From: a virus
Strand: one strand, 5' to 3'
IMG/VR virus record: IMGVR_UViG_3300045988_020466
Coordinates: 1 to 5,683 of that record
DNA: 5,683 bases
A program made the position numbers and the translations under genes. Position 1 is the first letter of the stretch. Each line of letters begins with the position of its first letter. Under the pieces are notes generated by a model, which was not told where the DNA came from, did not search any database, and was given only the letters and a program-made list of their open reading frames with translations. Of the stretch, positions 1 to 5,683 are shown piece after piece.

Positions 1-55
1 GCGACTTCTACTTCTTCTTCATCCCGTCGCGTCTGCTCTGGGAACACTTCGAAAA
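1..55. repeat. Terminal redundancy: 1..55 is identical to 5629..5683, so the window is a circular genome of 5628 nt opened inside the VP1 gene
   Basis: Exact 55-nt match (gcgacttctacttcttcttcatcccgtcgcgtctgctctgggaacacttcgaaaa) at both window ends. The reading frame is continuous across the junction, since 5628 is a multiple of 3. Confidence 0.9.
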
Positions 56-1370
56 CCTGATGGGACAAAACGACTCCACCTTCTGGGCAGAGAACGTGGA
101 ATACACAACGCCGAAAACAACTGCGCCGGAAGGCGGCTGGAAAGTGGGAACGCTGGCAGACTACTTCGGCATTCCGACCGGGGTAGCAAACCTTCAGGTA
201 AACTCACTGCCGTTCAGAGCATATGCAAAAGTCTGGAACGAATGGTTCAGAGACGAAAACCTGCAGCAGCCTGTCACGATGAGCAAGACAGACGCAACGA
301 CCGCAGGAAGCAATACCGGCACGAACCTCACGGACGCAGAAGCGGGCGGTCTGCCGCTGAAAGTGTGCAAGTACAAAGACTACTTCACAAGCTGCCTGCC
401 GAGTCCGCAGAAGGGCGAGGCTGTAAAGCTGCCCATGAGCGGTAACGCACCGGTTCTGGGGTACAAAACAGCACAAAGAGAAACGCCCAATGATGGCAAA
501 TACCCTCAAGGCCCAATTAGCAGCCTTGAAAGCTATCCCGCACTAATGGGCGTGGCGGGCTCGACACCGACGGGAACCGTATACCTTGGTGCAAGACTCG
601 ACCAATTAACCGCAGCAACGATCAACGAGTTACGCCAGGCGATCGCAGTGCAACACATCCTGGAACGCGATGCCAGAACCGGCACCAGGTACAAAGAGTA
701 CCTCAAAGGGGCGTGGGGTGTGACGAGTCCTGATGCACGTCTTGACCGGTCGGAGTACATCGGCGGCTACAGACTGCCCATCAACATCAACCAGGTCATC
801 CAGACATCGGCGACCGACACGACCAGTCCGCAGGGCAACACGGCAGCGTTCTCCATGACAACCATGAGCCGGAACATGGCTACCTACTCGGCGACCGAAC
901 ACGGCTTTATCCTGGGCCTGGCAGCGGTGCGAGTAGATCACAGCTATCAGCAGGGCTTGTCTCGTATGTGGACGCGCAGCACTCGCTTCAGCTACTATGA
1001 CCCGATGCTCGCAAACCTCGGCGAGCAGGCAGTGCTTAATCAGGAGATCTATGCACAGGGTACGGCGGTGGACGAAGAGGTCTTCGGCTATCAGGAAGCA
1101 TGGGCGGATTATCGCTACCGCACCAACATGATCACCGGCGAAATGCGCAGCACCTACAAGCAGACTCTGGACGCATGGCACTATGCAGACAAGTACGACA
1201 AGCTGCCTACTCTCTCCAGTGACTGGATCAAAGAGGGTACGGAGAACATCGATCGCACGATTGCAGTGCAGTCGGACAACAGCCGTCAGTTTATCTGCAA
1301 CTTCTACTTCGACCAGACATGGACGCGGGCGATGCCGATCTACAGCCTGCCGGGCCTCGATACGATCTAA
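1..1370 (+). CDS. VP1: Major capsid protein VP1 (gokushovirus F-like), C-terminal 456 codons; the N-terminal part is at 5409..5628 across the circular junction, giving about 529 aa in total
   Basis: Long ORF ending at TAA 1368-1370. It is in frame with the ORF starting at ATG 5409. The joined N-terminus MNRNAEQHYSQVPHANVPRARFKRDYSLLTTMNEGDLVPIYCDEVLPADT...DNCYCDFYFFFIPSRLLWEHFENL matches the conserved gokushovirus VP1 N-terminal region from memory. Size is typical for VP1. Confidence 0.88.
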   Translation, partial: DFYFFFIPSRLLWEHFENLMGQNDSTFWAENVEYTTPKTTAPEGGWKVGTLADYFGIPTGVANLQVNSLPFRAYAKVWNEWFRDENLQQPVTMSKTDATTAGSNTGTNLTDAEAGGLPLKVCKYKDYFTSCLPSPQKGEAVKLPMSGNAPVLGYKTAQRETPNDGKYPQGPISSLESYPALMGVAGSTPTGTVYLGARLDQLTAATINELRQAIAVQHILERDARTGTRYKEYLKGAWGVTSPDARLDRSEYIGGYRLPININQVIQTSATDTTSPQGNTAAFSMTTMSRNMATYSATEHGFILGLAAVRVDHSYQQGLSRMWTRSTRFSYYDPMLANLGEQAVLNQEIYAQGTAVDEEVFGYQEAWADYRYRTNMITGEMRSTYKQTLDAWHYADKYDKLPTLSSDWIKEGTENIDRTIAVQSDNSRQFICNFYFDQTWTRAMPIYSLPGLDTI

Positions 1371-1382
1371 GGAGGTGCAGCA

Positions 1383-2309
1383 ATGGCACTATCCTTGATG
1401 GGCCTGATCAAGGGCGGTCTGACTCTGGCAAGCACGCTGTCGAGCATCTACAGCAGCATCAAAGGGAGCACCTCGAGCGCAAGACAGCAAGGCACGATGC
1501 AAAACACTGTCCAAAGCGGCACGACCACGGGAACAACCGCACAGGACACCACGAGCACAGGCGGGAGCACTCAGACCGGCAACACCGGAGCGCTGGGAAA
1601 CCTGCTGTCAACGGCTCTGGGAACGCCTACAGGCAACAACGCCGGAGCAGCAGCAGAGTTTAATGCAGGTCAGACACAGACAGCCAACAATCTGCAAAAC
1701 GGTATGTGGAGCCTGGGCAACGTCATCAACCTGGGAAGTATGCTGGCATCCAACGCGATGAGTGCAGCAAGCCAAAGCAGCGCTATGCGGTACAACTCCA
1801 AAGAGGCCAAAGCTCAAAGAGACTGGCAGGAGCGTATGAGCAGCACAAGCTATCAAAGAGGCGTGGCAGACCTCAAAGCAGCAGGGCTCAACCCTGTACT
1901 GGCAGCATATAACGGCTTTGGAGAACAGACGCCGTCGGGCGGCTACGGAAGTCTGGGCGGGGGTCAGACCTTCGGCCATACTCAGGCTATGGCAATACCA
2001 ACGGCAAAAAATGCGACCATGCAAGCCATGTACGACTATGGCAACAACACAGCCCAGATCGTCGAGAACTATCAAAATGCCATCAACAGTGCAAAGCAGT
2101 CCTCGGACTACTGGACAGCCGAACACCTCGAACAGATGCAGCAGCAGACCGTGAGCAGCAGCGCTCAGACCGTGGGTCAGCTGGCCGAAGCCGAAAGGAG
2201 CAGCAGCGCTCAGACCTCGAACACCAGAGAGACCACCGACAGCAAACAGACCAACGTAGCCGGTGAGCTGTCCGGTGAATGGACAAACAAAAAACAGGGC
2301 AGAAGATAG
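1383..2309 (+). CDS. VP2: Minor capsid / DNA pilot protein VP2 (308 aa)
   Basis: Strong RBS AAGGAGG at 1369-1375 lies 7 nt before ATG 1383. The product is Gly/Ser/Thr/Gln-rich and low-complexity, with the conserved core AQRDWQERMSSTSYQRGVADLKAAGLNPVLA typical of gokushovirus VP2. It sits immediately downstream of VP1, as in gokushoviruses. Confidence 0.8.
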   Translation: MALSLMGLIKGGLTLASTLSSIYSSIKGSTSSARQQGTMQNTVQSGTTTGTTAQDTTSTGGSTQTGNTGALGNLLSTALGTPTGNNAGAAAEFNAGQTQTANNLQNGMWSLGNVINLGSMLASNAMSAASQSSAMRYNSKEAKAQRDWQERMSSTSYQRGVADLKAAGLNPVLAAYNGFGEQTPSGGYGSLGGGQTFGHTQAMAIPTAKNATMQAMYDYGNNTAQIVENYQNAINSAKQSSDYWTAEHLEQMQQQTVSSSAQTVGQLAEAERSSSAQTSNTRETTDSKQTNVAGELSGEWTNKKQGRR

Positions 2310-2338
2310 TTGACAAACACAGAAAAGGGGTGTATATT
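2310..2338 (+). promoter_or_regulatory. Sigma70-type promoter P1: TTGACA (2310-2315), 17-nt spacer, TATATT (2333-2338) preceded by TG
   Basis: Consensus -35 hexamer, 17-bp spacer, and a 5/6 -10 hexamer. It lies directly after the VP2 stop and about 40 nt upstream of the RBS and ATG of the 70-aa ORF. Confidence 0.6.
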
Positions 2339-2378
2339 ATGAGTGTACCAATCACACACTTAGGTTAGGAGGATAACC

Positions 2379-2591
2379 ATGAGGAGTCAGATCACAAAGA
2401 GATTTAACATCAACCTGACAGATAAAGAACAGGCAGCACTAAAAAACCTGACGGAAGAGTATGCAAACCGAAACTGGAAAGCAAACACTTCAGACATCAT
2501 CAGGGACGCTATCGTATACTACAGCGAAAAGATGACAGACTATAAAATTGCAGCAGAAGCAATCAGCGAAGAGGAAGACTTGCCCTTCTAA
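2379..2591 (+). CDS. 70-aa ribbon-helix-helix (Arc/MetJ/CopG-like) putative DNA-binding transcriptional regulator
   Basis: RBS AGGAGG at 2367-2372 lies 6 nt before ATG 2379. The N-terminus KRFNINLTD has an alternating polar/hydrophobic beta-strand pattern with basic residues. It is followed by helix A (KEQAALKNLTEEYA), a short turn, and helix B starting with an N-cap (NTSDIIRDAIVYY). This is the classic RHH topology. The fold assignment is by eye only. Confidence 0.5.
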   Translation: MRSQITKRFNINLTDKEQAALKNLTEEYANRNWKANTSDIIRDAIVYYSEKMTDYKIAAEAISEEEDLPF

Positions 2592-2602
2592 GAGACGATT
2601 TT

Positions 2603-2618
2603 GCCGGGCAGACCCGGC
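2603..2618 (+). other. Short GC-rich hairpin (GCCGGG-caga-CCCGGC) downstream of the RHH ORF; a U-run (2645-2650) follows at a distance
   Basis: 6-bp perfect GC stem with a 4-nt loop. The T-tract is about 25 nt downstream, so this is not a canonical intrinsic terminator. Confidence 0.25.
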
Positions 2619-2671
2619 CAAATCTGCAACATTTATCCATAGGTTTTTTTAAGAAAGTGCTAAATTTTGTG

Positions 2672-2716
2672 TCAGTGGGCCCCTATAACATCAAGAGGGT
2701 TATAGGGGCCCACTGA
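2672..2716. repeat. Perfect 18-bp inverted repeat with a 9-nt loop (tcagtgggcccctataac-atcaagagg-gttataggggcccactga), immediately upstream of the VP4 gene
   Basis: The left arm 2672-2689 is the exact reverse complement of the right arm 2699-2716. It is the largest perfect palindrome in the genome. No T-tract follows it, so it is not a standard terminator. Confidence 0.85.
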
Positions 2717-2737
2717 GGAAAGGCGCAGCGAAACTAT

Positions 2738-3847
2738 ATGTCATGTACAAGACCGCTCGTCAGAATACCGACAAAAGATGGTGATTACCGCGTAGTAAGC
2801 CTAAAAGGATACTTGAGTCACAGCGGTAAAAACCTCGAAATAGTCGCAGATAAAGAGCGTCAGAACCTGAACGAGAAAAAAATCAAAGAGCTGATAAGGG
2901 ACCAGGAAGCGCAGCTGCTACCGTGCGGACAATGTCCGGGATGCAAAATGGCAGCAGCATCCAGCTGGGCGAACAGAATGGAGCTAGAGCTTCCGTATCA
3001 TCAGAATGCGTGGTTTATCACGTTTACATACGATGACGAGAACGTGCCATACCGAATGACATGGGACGAAGGAACAGGCGAAATGCTGGTAGAAAATTAC
3101 AGTCTCCGCTACGAAGACATGCAGAAATTCTGGAAACGCCTCAGAAGGTACATGGAGTATCACAAGATAAACAACGGAAAACTGATGTACTTCCAGTGTG
3201 GTGAATATGGTGGAAAAACACACAGACCACATTATCATGCGATCGTGTACGACATACCATTCACCAAAGAAGACCTAAAGGTCTACAAAAAGAAAAACGG
3301 CGCTGTATATTACAACGTCGATTGGTTTACCGAACTATGGGGCATGGGCCATGTGGTCATCGCAGCAGCAGAGTGGAAAGCGATGGCATACACAGCAAGA
3401 TACACCACGAAAAAGGTCTATGGAAAGGAAGGAAAAGAATTTTACAAAGAGCTGGGAATTTTACCTGAGAAGTGCAGCATGAGCAAAAGACCAGCGATTG
3501 GAGCAAAATACTTCGAAGAACATAGCGAAGAAATCTATGCAAAAGACAAAATCCAGCTGAAGAACGGAAAAGTTTGCAAACCGCCAAGGTATTTTGATAA
3601 GCTATACGATGCACAGTGTCTGAGAAAACCACTCACAGACAAAGAGGTAGAAGACATTGAGCTGACAATAGAAAAAGCCGAGTCCGATGAGCTCAAAGCG
3701 ATAAAGAGAAAACGTCGCAAGTTAGCAAACGACGCACTCTTCGCCAAGCTCAAGCAGAACAACGGCTTAACCATGCAAGAGTATTATAACAAAGAGGAAC
3801 AGAAAATACAAGACAGGTTCAGAAAACTCATCCGGGAAGAAATCTAA
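2738..3847 (+). CDS. VP4: Replication initiator protein VP4 (HUH rolling-circle endonuclease, phiX174 gpA-like), 369 aa
   Basis: Motif I FITFTYDD, motif II HRPHYHAIVYDIPF (HUH), and motif III AYTARYTTKKVYG (two catalytic Tyr spaced as in phiX174 gpA YVAKYVNKK) are present. There is an N-terminal MSCTRPL and a CGQCPGC zinc-ribbon-like motif. All of this is typical of gokushovirus VP4. Confidence 0.88.
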   Translation: MSCTRPLVRIPTKDGDYRVVSLKGYLSHSGKNLEIVADKERQNLNEKKIKELIRDQEAQLLPCGQCPGCKMAAASSWANRMELELPYHQNAWFITFTYDDENVPYRMTWDEGTGEMLVENYSLRYEDMQKFWKRLRRYMEYHKINNGKLMYFQCGEYGGKTHRPHYHAIVYDIPFTKEDLKVYKKKNGAVYYNVDWFTELWGMGHVVIAAAEWKAMAYTARYTTKKVYGKEGKEFYKELGILPEKCSMSKRPAIGAKYFEEHSEEIYAKDKIQLKNGKVCKPPRYFDKLYDAQCLRKPLTDKEVEDIELTIEKAESDELKAIKRKRRKLANDALFAKLKQNNGLTMQEYYNKEEQKIQDRFRKLIREEI

Positions 3848-3871
3848 GGAACGGCTAAATAAGGGAATGCA

Positions 3872-3910
3872 GACGGCGTGGCCTCGAAAGGCTGCGCCGT
3901 CCTTTTCATT
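3872..3910 (+). terminator. Rho-independent terminator after VP4
   Basis: A 12-bp GC-rich stem (gacggcgtggcc / ggctgcgccgtc, with two G-U pairs in RNA) and a 6-nt loop, followed by CUUUUCAUU. Confidence 0.6.
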
Positions 3911-3953
3911 CGGCGCACCGCGCCGACCGGACGGCCTTAAACTCAAAAAGTGC

Positions 3954-3982
3954 TTGACAAGTGTATAATTTAGGTGTATAAT
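3954..3982 (+). promoter_or_regulatory. Perfect-consensus sigma70 promoter P2: TTGACA (3954-3959), 17-nt spacer, TATAAT (3977-3982)
   Basis: Both hexamers match consensus exactly with optimal 17-bp spacing. It lies 28 nt upstream of ATG 4010. It contains tandem GTGTATAAT repeats. Confidence 0.7.
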
Positions 3983-4009
3983 AAAGGTGTAGAAAGGACG
4001 GTGCTTAAA

Positions 4010-4192
4010 ATGACCGAAATCGAAAAAATCAAAAAGAGCATCCAGAACCAGATAGATCAACAGGAAAGAAACTACTACAAAGACCTTAAGAGCAAAGCAA
4101 AGCACACAGATGGTACAGAGATGTACAAAGTAGACAGCCACAAAATCGAAGCGCTGGAAGTAGCACTGAGAATAATCGAAATGTATGAATAA
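4010..4192 (+). CDS. Hypothetical 60-aa highly charged, helical protein (MTEIEKIKKSIQNQIDQQERNYYKDLKSKAKHTDGTEMYKVDSHKIEALEVALRIIEMYE)
   Basis: ATG 4010 lies downstream of the predicted P2 start site, with AAAGGA 11 nt upstream. The GTG at 3974 given in the ORF track lies inside the -10 element and is unlikely to be the start. The ORF is flanked by its own promoter and terminator. I do not recognise a family. Confidence 0.55.
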   Translation: MTEIEKIKKSIQNQIDQQERNYYKDLKSKAKHTDGTEMYKVDSHKIEALEVALRIIEMYE

Positions 4193-4195
4193 ACC

Positions 4196-4242
4196 AAAAA
4201 ACGTGAGGTTGACGAAAATCAGCCTTGCGTTTTTTTTTTTTT
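4196..4242 (+). terminator. Rho-independent terminator, a hairpin flanked by an A-tract and a 13-T tract, which could also act bidirectionally
   Basis: The structure is aaaaaacg-tga-GGTTGA-cgaaaa-TCAGCC-ttg-cgtttttttttttttt. The stem is interrupted, with 13 consecutive T at 4230-4242. It lies immediately after the stop of the 60-aa ORF. Confidence 0.6.
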
Positions 4243-4250
4243 GGTAAAAT
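4242..4250 (+). promoter_or_regulatory. Candidate extended -10 promoter (TGgTAAAAT) for the late gene cluster
   Basis: It matches the TGnTAnAAT pattern. No good -35 is present: TTGCGT lies 14 nt upstream, which is suboptimal. It sits upstream of the VP8-like / VP5 / VP3 / VP1 cluster. Confidence 0.3.
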
Positions 4251-4353
4251 TGACATAGAAAACCAGCACCACAAAACGAAAGGAGAAAGCTGCCTCCAGT
4301 GCTGGTGATCTGTGCTTCATTTATACAAATATGGAAAGAAGGGAGGTGTTGCC

Positions 4354-4458
4354 ATGATCACTTTAAAAGACGTGAAGGGTATCTTCAACCAGCTGCGCAA
4401 GATTTTGGCCATGCTGGATAAGATTTACCACGCACTCAACCTGGATAAGGAGGAATAA
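4354..4458 (+). CDS. Hypothetical 34-aa amphipathic helical peptide (MITLKDVKGIFNQLRKILAMLDKIYHALNLDKEE)
   Basis: Strong RBS GAAGGGAGG lies 7 nt upstream of ATG 4354. The stop is 1 nt before the next gene's ATG. It is a small ORF of uncertain reality. Confidence 0.4.
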   Translation: MITLKDVKGIFNQLRKILAMLDKIYHALNLDKEE

Positions 4459-4459
4459 T

Positions 4460-4579
4460 ATGGCACATCGTATGCCGGTCAACCCGAAAAAGGACAAGCG
4501 GGTGTTTACCAACACCGCGAAGAAAACCAAGAAGATCAACGTCAACCCGAAGCCGTCGAGAGGAGGCATCAGGCTGTGA
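4460..4579 (+). CDS. VP8: Small basic DNA-binding protein (gokushovirus ORF8/VP8-like, phiX174 J analogue), 39 aa
   Basis: RBS AAGGAGG at 4448-4454 lies 5 nt before ATG 4460. The product MAHRMPVNPKKDKRVFTNTAKKTKKINVNPKPSRGGIRL is very K/R-rich and ends in RGGIRL. This resembles the C-terminal RGGIRF of the chlamydiaphage ORF8 protein, as I recall it. Confidence 0.6.
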   Translation: MAHRMPVNPKKDKRVFTNTAKKTKKINVNPKPSRGGIRL

Positions 4580-4668
4580 ACGAAGTACAGCTTATCATCA
4601 AGGTAATAACGCTCAGTCTGCTCATCGCAGATCTGTACATGATCGTCAAAATGATTCGGAGGAAATAA
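4576..4668 (+). CDS. 30-aa single-pass transmembrane peptide (MNEVQLIIKVITLSLLIADLYMIVKMIRRK), a candidate lysis or membrane peptide
   Basis: The GTG start overlaps the TGA stop of the upstream gene (ctGTGA). The RBS GAGAGGAGG (4558-4566) lies 9 nt upstream. The product has a roughly 22-residue hydrophobic core and a basic C-terminal tail (RRK). Its stop is 2 nt before the VP5 ATG. Confidence 0.4.
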   Translation: MNEVQLIIKVITLSLLIADLYMIVKMIRRK

Positions 4669-4670
4669 AG

Positions 4671-4934
4671 ATGGAATTCCAGATATACGCAATCAAGGAC
4701 GAACTTGCCGGGACCTTCGGCAATCTGATGGTGGTCAACGAAAAGGTGGCCGATCGAACAATGAAGTGGATGGCCCAGGAGATGGAGAAGGCCGACTGCG
4801 AAGATAAGCGGGTCTATCTGATGGGCAGCTACGACAACGAGACCGGCCTGATCAGGCCGGAGCAGATGCCGCGTCTGAGCTACAATCTCGAGTTGATGAA
4901 AAAGGAGCAGACGAATGGGAGTCAGAATCTTTAA
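4671..4934 (+). CDS. VP5: VP5-like protein (gokushovirus ORF5; ssDNA synthesis / phiX174 C analogue), 87 aa
   Basis: RBS GGAGG lies 7 nt before ATG 4671. The N-terminal pattern MEFQIYAIKDELAGTFGNLMVVNEKVADRTMKW...EDKRVYLMGSYDNETGLI follows the conserved VP5 signature (IY..KD..a..F..p......A.R.f ... ED..ly.lG.fD.eTG.i). It lies just upstream of VP3, as expected. Confidence 0.6.
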   Translation: MEFQIYAIKDELAGTFGNLMVVNEKVADRTMKWMAQEMEKADCEDKRVYLMGSYDNETGLIRPEQMPRLSYNLELMKKEQTNGSQNL

Positions 4935-5412
4935 GCCCTACGAGGACGAAAAACCGGTGGCACTGCCGAACGAACCGGGAAACCGGTTTGAGCCGGAGTA
5001 CAAGGAGCGGTATGATGACCGCGGACAGCCGTACCTTGAAAAGGTGGGCGAGGTGGACACCTACGAGAAAATCCAGAGCTACAAGGACGAGTGTGACGTT
5101 ATGGCTATCCTGAGCCGATACGCTGCCGGAGACGAGAGCGTCCTGGCAAAACCGGGGTGGTACATCGACACCAGCAAGCTGCCGAAGACCTATACCGAAT
5201 ACATGAACCTGATGAACGAGAAGCGGGAAGAGTTTAACCAACTGCCGCTCAGTATTCGCCAGGCATTCGGCATGAACTTCGAAAACTGGATGGCAACAGC
5301 CGGTGAACAGGAGTGGCTGGACAAAATGGGCATCAAAATTCAGCAGAATGCACAAGAAAAGGTCGATGCTGCCATCGAAGATGTTGTGCAGAAAGGAGAA
5401 AATAAAGAATGA
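4915..5412 (+). CDS. VP3: Internal scaffolding protein VP3 (165 aa)
   Basis: RBS AAAGGAG lies 7 nt before ATG 4915. It overlaps the VP5 3' end by 20 nt in another frame. Its stop overlaps the VP1 start (ATGA at 5409-5412). The product is acidic, with EKIQSYKDECDVMAILSRYAAGD and LPLSIRQAF regions like gokushovirus VP3. It sits directly before VP1. Confidence 0.65.
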   Translation: MGVRIFKPYEDEKPVALPNEPGNRFEPEYKERYDDRGQPYLEKVGEVDTYEKIQSYKDECDVMAILSRYAAGDESVLAKPGWYIDTSKLPKTYTEYMNLMNEKREEFNQLPLSIRQAFGMNFENWMATAGEQEWLDKMGIKIQQNAQEKVDAAIEDVVQKGENKE

Positions 5413-5683
5413 ACCGCAATGCTGAACAGCACTACTCTCAAGTTCCTCATGCAAACGTACCGCGAGCGAGATTCAAGCGAGACTACTCGCTGTTGACGAC
5501 CATGAACGAAGGAGACCTCGTCCCGATCTACTGTGATGAGGTGTTGCCGGCCGACACGGCAAAGATCAACCTGAACGCTCTGATGCGCATGAGCACACCG
5601 CTGTATCCGGTTATGGATAACTGTTACTGCGACTTCTACTTCTTCTTCATCCCGTCGCGTCTGCTCTGGGAACACTTCGAAAA
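5409..5683 (+). CDS. VP1: Major capsid protein VP1, N-terminal part, continuing at window position 1 through the circular junction (5629..5683 duplicates 1..55)
   Basis: ATG 5409 is preceded by an in-frame TAA at 5403-5405 and by RBS AAAGGAG 10 nt upstream. The translation MNRNAEQHYSQVPHANVPRARFKRDYSLL... is the canonical gokushovirus VP1 N-terminus, and the frame is continuous with 3..1370. Confidence 0.85.
   Translation, partial: MNRNAEQHYSQVPHANVPRARFKRDYSLLTTMNEGDLVPIYCDEVLPADTAKINLNALMRMSTPLYPVMDNCYCDFYFFFIPSRLLWEHFE

Follow-up and report, generated by a model that had tools for sequence, protein, structure and literature searches.

The DNA analysed here, called the window throughout, is the whole 5,683-nucleotide (nt) stretch of IMG/VR virus record IMGVR_UViG_3300045988_020466. 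It holds the genome of a gokushovirus which, besides the core genes of this virus group, contains a gene for a ribbon-helix-helix (RHH)-like protein directly upstream of the replication gene VP4. Between VP4 and VP8 lies a cassette composed of a predicted promoter, a small open reading frame (ORF) and a predicted terminator. The features of the window are collected in Table 1. The RHH-like gene, the cassette and the candidate signals that flank them are the subject of this report.

Table 1. Positions of genes, predicted signals and structured elements in the window (aa, amino acids; E, expect value; pN/pS, ratio of nonsynonymous to synonymous polymorphism)
Position	Strand	Feature	Evidence or remark
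1..55		Assembly overlap, marks the 5628-nt circular contig	Identical to 5629-5683
1..1370	+	VP1 remainder (529 aa whole), including hypervariable surface-loop region ~430-640	Profile match, junction reading frame
1383..2309	+	VP2 DNA pilot protein, 308 aa	phrog_18604 E 3e-106; many other PHROGs of pilot proteins
2310..2338	+	Predicted promoter P1, TTGACA-17 nt-TATATT, 11/12 consensus positions	Kept in 32/33 related genomes
2330..2347	+	GTGTA-N8-GTGTA direct repeat over P1 -10 box and transcription start, candidate operator	Motif search
2379..2591	+	RHH-like protein, 70 aa; AGGAGG 7 nt upstream of ATG	pN/pS 0.20
2597..2624	+	Small conserved hairpin H1 past the RHH stop codon, no T tract behind	Fold prediction
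2672..2716	+	Hairpin H2, 18-bp perfect stem, conserved loop ATCAAGAGG, ends 21 nt before VP4 start codon	DNA fold
2738..3847	+	VP4 rolling-circle replication initiator, 369 aa	REP_ORF2-G2P E 1e-14; phrog_942 E 1e-97
3872..3911	+	Predicted terminator T1 after VP4, 13-bp GC-rich stem then CTTTTCATTC	Conserved in alignment with GenBank relatives
3910..3926	+	Second short hairpin behind T1	Relatives have a hairpin too, of different sequence
3954..3982	+	Predicted promoter P2, TTGACA-17 nt-TATAAT, 12/12 consensus positions	Conserved across clade
3961..3991	+	Three GTGTA boxes, 13-nt spacing, over P2 spacer, -10 box and start site, candidate operator	Motif search
4010..4192	+	Cassette ORF 'type A' (ORF60), 60 aa, predicted helical hairpin, orphan family	pN/pS 0.31
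4196..4242	+	Predicted terminator T2 after cassette ORF, stem ACGTGAGG...CCTTGCGT then 13 T	Conserved among relatives
4254..4314	+	Structured leader H5, two-level hairpin	Outer helix 98.7% paired, 4/8 pairs compensatory
4354..4458	+	Conserved 34-aa ORF34 (MITLKDVKGIFNQLRKILAMLDKIYH...), strong Shine-Dalgarno sequence	pN/pS 0.16, like core genes
4460..4579	+	VP8/J-like basic DNA-binding protein, 39 aa	phrog_10695 E 2e-9
4576..4668	+	30-aa single-transmembrane peptide (ORF30), GTG start overlapping VP8 stop codon	Second variable site
4671..4934	+	VP5, 87 aa	Phage_ORF5 E 4.5e-8; phrog_1670
4915..5412	+	VP3 internal scaffolding protein, 165 aa	Chlamy_scaf E 1.4e-33
5409..5683	+	N-terminal part of the major capsid protein VP1; the reading frame resumes at window base 56	Phage_F E 4e-161; phrog_514 E 3e-213

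A complete circular genome of a known gokushovirus

The exact direct repeat at the two ends of the window, with a spacing of 5628 nt, cannot be due to chance. Because related assemblies end in overlaps of 55, 75 or 119 nt, the 55-nt repeat is the k-mer overlap that an assembler leaves on a circular path and not a biological terminal repeat. The first-pass annotation of this DNA had read the repeat, together with a VP1 gene running across the junction, as the mark of one whole circular replicon. Its reading agrees with the repeat, with the 529-aa VP1 frame and with four separately assembled circular records cut elsewhere (KX513873, MG945797, MG945186 and MG945569), in which 600 nt across the junction align without a break. 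These four records are 5562-5631 nt long and colinear with the window. The annotation had itself raised the danger that the repeat is an assembly artefact of a linear contig. For an artefact on a linear or chimeric contig, with the window incomplete, speaks the assembler origin of the 55-nt overlap; the junction is nevertheless continuous in four independent circular records and VP1 is intact only on the circle, and the artefact was rejected as a negligible possibility. It is virtually certain that the window represents one complete circular replicon of a gokushovirus.

The closest record, KX513873.1 (Human gut gokushovirus isolate SH-CHD10, circular, 5631 nt, classified in Gokushovirinae), shows 97.4% nucleotide identity over 100% of the window genome. 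Gene order is the same, the RHH protein and the type-A cassette product are 98.6% and 96.7% identical in aa sequence, and the differences, including 5631 versus 5628 nt in length, are at the level of strains only. The window is a strain of this already deposited virus, and the genome itself is not new. However, the public record annotates VP1 to VP4 only, leaving the RHH gene, the cassette, ORF34, VP8, ORF30 and VP5 unannotated. Three genomes from pig faeces are 80-86% identical to the window genome.

The size of 5.6 kb, placed at the large end of the subfamily by the first-pass annotation, is ordinary for mammal-gut gokushoviruses, though above that of the cultured type species. Relatives from the genome search measure 5.2-5.8 kb, microvirus genomes have a median of 5078 nt and a maximum of 8.3 kb (PMC9239249), and the mammal-associated 'Gokushovirinae B' have comparatively large genomes (PMC9239249). 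The accessory DNA was likewise overestimated at about 1.7 kb, as VP4 lies inside the stretch that had been counted. Non-core DNA amounts to 1040 nt in two blocks flanking VP4, one of 428 nt (2310-2737) and one of 612 nt (3848-4459), plus 91 nt between VP8 and VP5.

A probable exchangeable gene slot between VP4 and VP8

The promoter-to-terminator cassette that had been noticed in the window is present at 3954-4242. We surveyed it in 33 genomes, comprising the window, four GenBank relatives, IMG/VR contigs, a metagenome scan and one contig from ENA. When the VP4-to-VP8 regions of the window and the four GenBank relatives were aligned, P2, the leader and T2 were almost invariant, whereas the interval from the start codon to the foot of T2 could not be aligned. 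Identity between the window and MG945186 or MG945797 is about 84-96% over most of the genome and 54-61% in the cassette (58% for MG945186).

Unrelated ORFs of 40-84 aa fill the same start-codon-to-terminator interval. Type A, of 60 aa, occurs in the window and five other genomes. Family B (51-84 aa) occurs in 17; its subgroups B1-B3 share MKSYYEE or, in B2 and B3, a YDGGW motif. The remaining types are C (two genomes), D (one), the cysteine-rich E (three) and F (one). BLASTP finds no relationship of types A, C, D, E and F with B or with each other, so that at this level of comparison the ORFs that can fill the cassette fall into six or more unrelated families (A to F). No ORF is present in L016 (IMGVR_UViG_3300045988_013344), in which just 63 nt separate promoter and terminator and P2 is degenerate, having 7 mismatches to the 44-nt consensus. 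This empty cassette indicates that the ORF is dispensable and that the promoter appears to decay without it. The type C protein is identical in relatives L003 and L012, for which VP4 identity to the window is 92% and 47%, respectively. Together with the divergence of the cassette between close genomes, this indicates that ORF type is independent of the backbone. We regard an exchangeable slot as the highly probable reading of the cassette.

The small ORFs appear to be real genes. Every cassette ORF has a Shine-Dalgarno sequence and an intact frame, and family B is kept across backbones that are only about 75% identical in VP1. In addition, pN/pS is low for ORF60 (0.31, from few differences), the RHH gene (0.20) and ORF34 (0.16), compared with 0.14-0.15 for VP5 and VP8. 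In a search of 5.8 billion proteins, all homologues of types A and B2 lay on contigs no longer than 5.8 kb. With type A as query, an all-library HMMER search returned seven matches, recovering only a small family; two long proteins among the seven were dismissed as coiled-coil noise. Nine cassette ORF representatives had no match in Pfam or PHROGs, and the AlphaFold2 (AF2) model of ORF60 is a generic helical hairpin for which the Protein Data Bank (PDB) held no informative match. All of the products are hydrophilic; B2, B3 and E are strongly acidic (isoelectric point 4.0-4.8), and A, B1, C, D and F are near-neutral or basic. A 19-mer of the terminator also turned up in three large viral contigs (L008, L009 and L013), but nothing beyond the 19-mer was shared and these were discarded as chance matches.

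Predicted transcription units

Promoters and terminators were called from consensus and prediction, with the sigma-70 consensus for the promoters. Only two sites approach this consensus, P1 at 2310 and P2 at 3954. Of the terminator-like sites on the gene strand, T1 (called at 3872-3901) and T2 (called at 4196-4235) rank highest. The P1 core is kept even where VP4 is only 47-63% identical. Two units can be drawn from these predictions. Unit 1 runs from P1 through the RHH-like ORF, a 146-nt spacer and VP4 to T1, and unit 2 from P2 through a leader of about 20 nt with a Shine-Dalgarno sequence and ORF60 to T2. No terminator is predicted between the RHH gene and VP4 (2592-2737), and we infer that the two genes are co-transcribed from P1.

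Scanning the window revealed no other consensus promoter upstream of the late genes. In genomes of the L005/L010 type, VP8 starts about 30 nt past the T tract of T2, which leaves no space for a further promoter. As the late genes have no recognisable promoter of their own and VP8 stands so close behind T2 in some relatives, they are probably read through T2 from P2.

The RHH-like protein and a candidate operator at both promoters

An RHH regulator was among the genes listed by the first-pass annotation, and an ORF of this kind does lie directly upstream of VP4, sharing the predicted P1-to-T1 unit, although all of its family matches are sub-threshold. RHH_1 (CopG family) matches 9 of 23 members with a best E of 0.006, below the cut-off; CcdA and DUF6290 match three and two of the 23, and RHH_3 is likewise sub-threshold. 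A profile search of the PDB gave ParD at an E of 0.56. The best Foldseek E was 1.0, and the matches of low root-mean-square deviation are the RHH proteins Reg576, ParD2, NikR, ParB of pCXC100 and AtaR. In the AF2 model (predicted local distance difference test score 71), residues 1-14 are extended and helices span residues 15-30 and 37-52. One homologue is named an Arc/MetJ-type RHH regulator by the Joint Genome Institute. Homologues form 73 protein clusters, all on microvirus-sized contigs except one on a 48-kb contig. They share a K-R-x-N-x-N-L-T strand and an S-D-I-I-R-D helix cap as invariant motifs; in the alignment N10, N12, T14, S38, I40, I41 and R42 are invariant and K7 and R8 nearly so. 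As the sub-threshold matches converge on the ribbon-helix-helix fold, the 70-aa protein is accepted as RHH-like. The accessory genes had been called unusual for Gokushovirinae. This holds for the public records, in which they are unannotated, but not for the clade, where they are the normal layout (at least 36 genomes, 73 RHH clusters).

The direct repeat GTGTA-N8-GTGTA occurs three times in the window (2330, 3961 and 3974), only at P1 and P2, while shuffled sequences lead one to expect 0.01. It was found in 36 of 64 loci, in the same places and on the gene strand. The 36 correspond to those microvirus genomes in which an RHH gene precedes VP4, leaving aside a few partial contigs whose RHH gene could not be scored. 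The motif is absent from the other 28, among them phiX174, SpV4, phiMH2K, Chp2, Dulem viruses 202 and 206 and a chicken microvirus. The residues presumed to face DNA (R8, N10 and N12) stay conserved or even invariant where RHH variants share as little as 43-48% identity. From this pattern of motif and residues, the GTGTA repeats are likely to be the operator of the RHH protein at both promoters. For actual repression of both P1 and P2 by the protein, judged on the same pattern, the chances appear about even.

In one relative, L063 (MG945373.1, 3694-4133), a P1-type promoter with GTGTA repeats precedes, in this order, an additional acidic ORF of 61 aa, the RHH gene and VP4, indicating that the P1 operon is able to carry an extra small ORF. 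Dulem viruses 202 and 206 (L061 and L062) have neither the RHH gene between VP2 and VP4 nor the GTGTA repeats. Their VP4-VP8 interval does hold two to three small ORFs, of which some show an RHH-like pattern (e.g. KIQRTVYVSEKMEKI...SYQDTIIDIIEEGL). It may be that many gut gokushoviruses have small regulators whose position varies.

Conserved hairpins

Hairpin H2, just upstream of VP4, has a predicted folding energy of -21 kcal/mol as DNA (z -6.2) and is present in 31 relatives. Of its 18 pairs, 5 show compensatory double changes, and pairing holds in 98% of cells; shuffles and slid controls come nowhere near these values. In Dulem virus 206, which has no RHH gene there, the loop and the covaried upper stem of H2 are nevertheless kept before VP4, indicating that H2 goes with Rep and not with the regulator. 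We favour a putative role for H2 as a rolling-circle origin or a control element of VP4. An origin of the phiX174 type was looked for and none was found; CTTGAT occurs only by chance and, at H2, on the wrong strand. Among unpaired cells of H2, four of five are A-C on the + strand, which correspond to G-T wobbles on the complementary strand, the fifth is G-G, and no G-T is seen on the + strand. The wobble pattern of H5 is the opposite, and the numbers are too small to decide the folding strand.

H5 appears to act in the + strand or in mRNA, as G-U wobbles are tolerated on the + strand. A conserved TTGACA with no matching -10 box stands at 4247, 5 nt past the T tract of T2 and just before H5. 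This hexamer and H5 (4247-4314) may together form an mRNA leader, or else an origin for the complementary strand which, in single-stranded DNA, imitates a promoter. An Rfam search gave no match at E <= 1 anywhere in the window.

A proposed mechanism and its alternatives

The explanation that we consider probable is that the window is a strain of a known gut gokushovirus whose clade carries an additional layer consisting of a regulator and an exchangeable cassette. Under this explanation, the incoming strand would be made double-stranded and host RNA polymerase would fire P1 and P2. From P1 would come the RHH protein together with Rep, whose ribosome-binding site is poor, and from P2 large amounts of the cassette ORF protein, as the first and most abundant product of the double-stranded replicative form. 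Transcripts from P2 that pass T2 would serve the late genes; phiX174 reads through its weak terminators and offers a parallel. As it accumulates, the RHH protein would bind the GTGTA repeats at the -10 box and start of both promoters and so damp its own operon, including Rep, and the cassette. The invariant flanks would act as homology arms with which co-infecting relatives swap the ORF by homologous recombination. The cassette ORFs would be small soluble proteins, many of them very acidic, acting on the host or on competing phages, and H2 would be the Rep-linked element, either rolling-circle origin or VP4 control. That the cassette products act against the host or competitors (anti-defence, takeover or exclusion) and not in virion assembly can be proposed only tentatively. 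The most far-reaching version is a natural 'expression vector' with a fixed promoter, leader and terminator, swapped anti-defence or competition effectors, and one RHH repressor set over both slot and replication gene through GTGTA. It would be the first regulated accessory slot in Microviridae, with H2 as the long-missing gokushovirus rolling-circle origin, and we regard it as speculative and doubtful as a whole.

Several points weigh against this explanation. T2, with its 13 T, looks strong, a poor fit with efficient read-through. The promoters and terminators are consensus matches, and transcription, protein-DNA binding and recombination are here all read from sequence. For the regulator, no RHH match reaches a curated threshold, the best Foldseek E is 1.0 and the AF2 monomer is without a beta strand. 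The repeats of RHH operators usually recur every 7-11 bp, which makes a spacing of 13 nt unusual. Two of the GTGTA boxes overlap -10 hexamers, so that their conservation may in part be promoter conservation, and the co-occurrence of RHH gene and GTGTA motif is confounded by shared ancestry. The cassette ORFs, lacking any Pfam, PHROG or fold match and having homologues only on microvirus-sized contigs, can be assigned no function from these comparisons.

In a different account, P2 and T2 would be the essential main late promoter and a leaky attenuator, and the ORF between them a tolerated, fast-turnover passenger or leader with little or no function. Such an account would fit with the lack of another consensus promoter upstream of the late genes, with VP8 almost directly after T2 in L005/L010-type genomes, with the retention of promoter and terminator in L016 with nothing between them, and with the orphan status of all cassette ORFs, for which no homologues are detectable outside the clade. 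It is compatible with the explanation that we prefer as far as P2 and T2 are concerned, and differs only on whether the ORF matters. On that question the Shine-Dalgarno sequence and intact frame of each ORF, the pN/pS of type A, and the persistence of family B with its YDGGW motif across backbones differing by 25% in VP1 all argue for a functional gene. Moreover, the occupation of one interval by unrelated ORFs of 40-84 aa points to selection for carrying a gene there. A passenger ORF is unlikely in our judgement. The regulator can also be read differently, as an antitoxin- or partition-type protein (of the ParD, CcdA, ParG or omega class) or as no RHH protein at all. Among its weak matches, all below threshold, are indeed three antitoxins (ParD, CcdA and AtaR) and a centromere-binding protein, ParB of pCXC100. 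However, the 5.6-kb genome has no gene for a toxin or a partition ATPase, its other ORFs being accounted for; the neighbours of the RHH gene are VP2 upstream and VP4 downstream, and there is no unassigned ORF of toxin size. The toxin-antitoxin, integron and partition readings were rejected as partner genes are absent. The gene sits between a repeat-bearing promoter and the rep gene, and antitoxins and ParG/omega proteins are themselves autorepressors of the same fold, which leaves this reading very improbable.

A temperate or persistent virus, with the RHH protein as a repressor for lysogeny or maintenance and the cassette as a moron that benefits the host cell, e.g. by superinfection exclusion, is also quite improbable, if slightly less so. 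The cassette is moron-like in having its own predicted promoter and terminator, candidate regulator sites lie on both promoters, and other gokushovirus lineages are known to lysogenise through XerCD (PMC7062461). A 48-kb metagenomic contig (L023; ENA ERZ27281030 k141_41694, 48,421 nt) moreover joins a relative to plasmid-like bacterial genes, namely those for a ParM-like ATPase, DUF5720, helix-turn-helix proteins and an FtsX/MacB transporter. This contig ends in the Illumina adapter AGATCGGAAGAGCACACGT and its phage copy lacks 92 nt around the poly-T terminator; it was therefore set aside as evidence of a prophage or of integration, being probably chimeric. No integrase gene is found among the genes of the window, and a search of the window with the dif consensus, allowing up to 3 mismatches, gave 0 matches. 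The P1 sequence TGTATATTATG has what we take to be an 11-nt resemblance to the E. coli dif core, which that search did not return as a site. When VP1 was compared with 185,579 species genomes, nothing exceeded 62% identity, and the match at 62% is a 2.6-kb binned contig.

Relation to known systems

The arrangement found in the window has counterparts in several systems, none of which it matches in full. Like a lambdoid moron, the cassette consists, by consensus, of a promoter, one small gene and an intrinsic terminator, is present, different or absent between close relatives, as seen here among 33 genomes, and is lower in GC (39-40%) than the genome average (50.5%). By contrast, the window is a 5.6-kb single-stranded DNA microvirus with no sign of lysogeny, P2 may double as the late promoter, and promoter and terminator are conserved fixtures of the backbone that do not arrive with the gene. 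In T4-type phages, promoter early stem-loop (PeSL) cassettes appear to act as recombination points at which related phages shuffle modules (Arbiol et al. 2010, PMC2839356). The slot of the window works like a PeSL but is not a member of that class, which is defined by many near-identical units. PeSLs number dozens per genome; in the window there is a single slot, with perhaps another between VP8 and VP5. T1 and T2 differ from one another, P1 and P2 share a core of only about 20 nt, no mini-circles are known and there is no sequence homology.

For the regulator, a parallel is the copG-repB operon of the pMV158-family rolling-circle plasmids, in which a small RHH gene lies upstream of an HUH initiator gene and the promoter contains repressor sites. 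As in this operon, the RHH gene of the window is immediately upstream of a rolling-circle initiator on the same strand, a single promoter carries candidate repressor sites, and no terminator is predicted between RHH gene and rep. Unlike CopG, which has 45 aa, the RHH-like protein has 70 aa; the repeats are direct with a 13-nt spacing and not a 13-bp pseudo-palindrome, and they also occur on a second promoter. An antisense RNA such as that of copG-repB was sought, and neither a minus-strand promoter or terminator in 2592-2800 nor an Rfam match was found. Anti-CRISPR (acr) loci combine a strong promoter, small, hypervariable and often acidic orphan proteins, and a small DNA-binding anti-CRISPR-associated (Aca) repressor with sites in the promoter. 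The very strong predicted promoter, the hypervariable small ORFs and the conserved small putative repressor of the window recall these loci by analogy only. The regulator of the window, unlike Aca, is in a separate operon. Temperate microviruses possess a hypervariable exchangeable region of VP2 that is thought to be driven by phage competition (Kirchberger et al. 2021, as cited in PMC9239249 and PMC10002423). As far as those citing papers describe it, that region differs from the slot of the window, since it lies inside VP2 of lysogenic lineages, whereas the slot is free-standing with predicted transcription signals of its own.

Microvirus accessory genes have been described as almost none, limited to methyltransferases and lysis peptidases (PMC9239249). 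The searchable literature contained nothing on RHH proteins, regulators or morons in gokushoviruses, and the module is not described there. To our knowledge, microviruses are described as being without transcriptional regulators, and we know of no transcription map or replication origin that has been defined for a gokushovirus. The new part is the clade-wide module of regulator and exchangeable cassette, unannotated in public records, while genome, species and size are ordinary. The clade spends nearly a fifth of a 5.6-kb genome on the regulator, structured DNA or RNA elements and a gene slot with turnover. If the cassette ORFs were anti-defence or competition factors, the module would offer a very small and tractable model for the acquisition, exchange and regulation of accessory genes where genome size is extremely constrained, and new small effector proteins could be drawn from phages that are abundant in the human gut. 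For the transcription map and replication origin of gokushoviruses, the promoters, terminators and hairpins conserved here are concrete candidates.

Core genes and further variable elements

All genes with profile support are on the + strand, and the small 5628-nt circle fits the Microviridae range of about 4.4-6.5 kb. The core set that had been listed for one strand (VP8-like, VP5, VP3, VP1, VP2 and VP4) was recovered with profile support for each gene, the VP1 match to Phage_F (PF02305) spanning the whole profile. Alignment to Microviridae references, which the first-pass annotation had suggested, gave full-length VP1 identities of 41.9% to Chp2, 40.6% to phiMH2K and 41.3% to SpV4, and VP4 identities of 27-32%. 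The VP8-like protein is 33% identical to the J-like 'putative DNA binding protein' of phiMH2K, and its counterpart in the Dulem viruses is annotated as a DNA binding protein. No protein of the window matched phiX174 by tblastn at E <= 0.01. The gokushovirus-specific set of VP3 (Chlamy_scaf), VP5, pilot protein VP2 and Rep VP4 is thus present, whereas phiX174-type proteins (D, G or H) are without match. By similarity, the assignment to gokushoviruses (Gokushovirinae sensu lato) stands.

The GC content steps from 52-60% over VP3, VP1 and VP2 to 39-49% over the RHH gene, VP4 and the cassette (2250-4350). In L012 and L020, VP1 is 84% and VP3 89-92% identical to the window, yet VP4 is only 47% identical, and the RHH protein is 44% (L012) or 73% (L020) identical. 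This module-wise mosaicism of the relatives and the GC step indicate separate histories of the replication and structural modules. Within VP1, identity falls to 42-52% over about 430-640 between genomes that are otherwise about 90% identical, a position that fits the hypervariable surface loop forming the capsid protrusion of gokushoviruses (PMC9239249).

As regards other lineages, large contigs of Phascolarctobacterium faecium DSM 14760 and Intestinirhabdus alba (L043 and L045) contain VP1 relatives of 44-45% identity, which are likely gokushovirus prophages. For the window, a host in Bacillota would agree with the long T tracts, the consensus sigma-70 promoters and the strong Shine-Dalgarno sequences, but this is only a guess.

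The tiny ORFs reported earlier are both present. The one between VP8 and VP5, ORF30, marks a second site of variation. Many relatives have a VP8-VP5 spacer of 12 nt, others including the window one of 91-97 nt, and a third group one of 189-215 nt. Spacers of 91-97 nt encode single-transmembrane peptides of 24-30 aa with a basic C-terminus, in three different sequences of the same character, and those of 189-215 nt encode a second RHH-like protein of 55 aa (phrog_5118, E 7e-8; weak RHH_3 match). It is conceivable that the ORF30 membrane peptide is a lysis or exclusion factor. The other, ORF34, is 82-100% conserved in the relatives that have it, the L005/L010-type group being without it. It had no family match in Pfam or PHROG profile searches and is annotated nowhere. 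A motif like that of ORF34, ILxxLDxIYH, recurs in small ORFs of Dulem viruses 202 and 206, where they follow VP8, and of a chicken microvirus.

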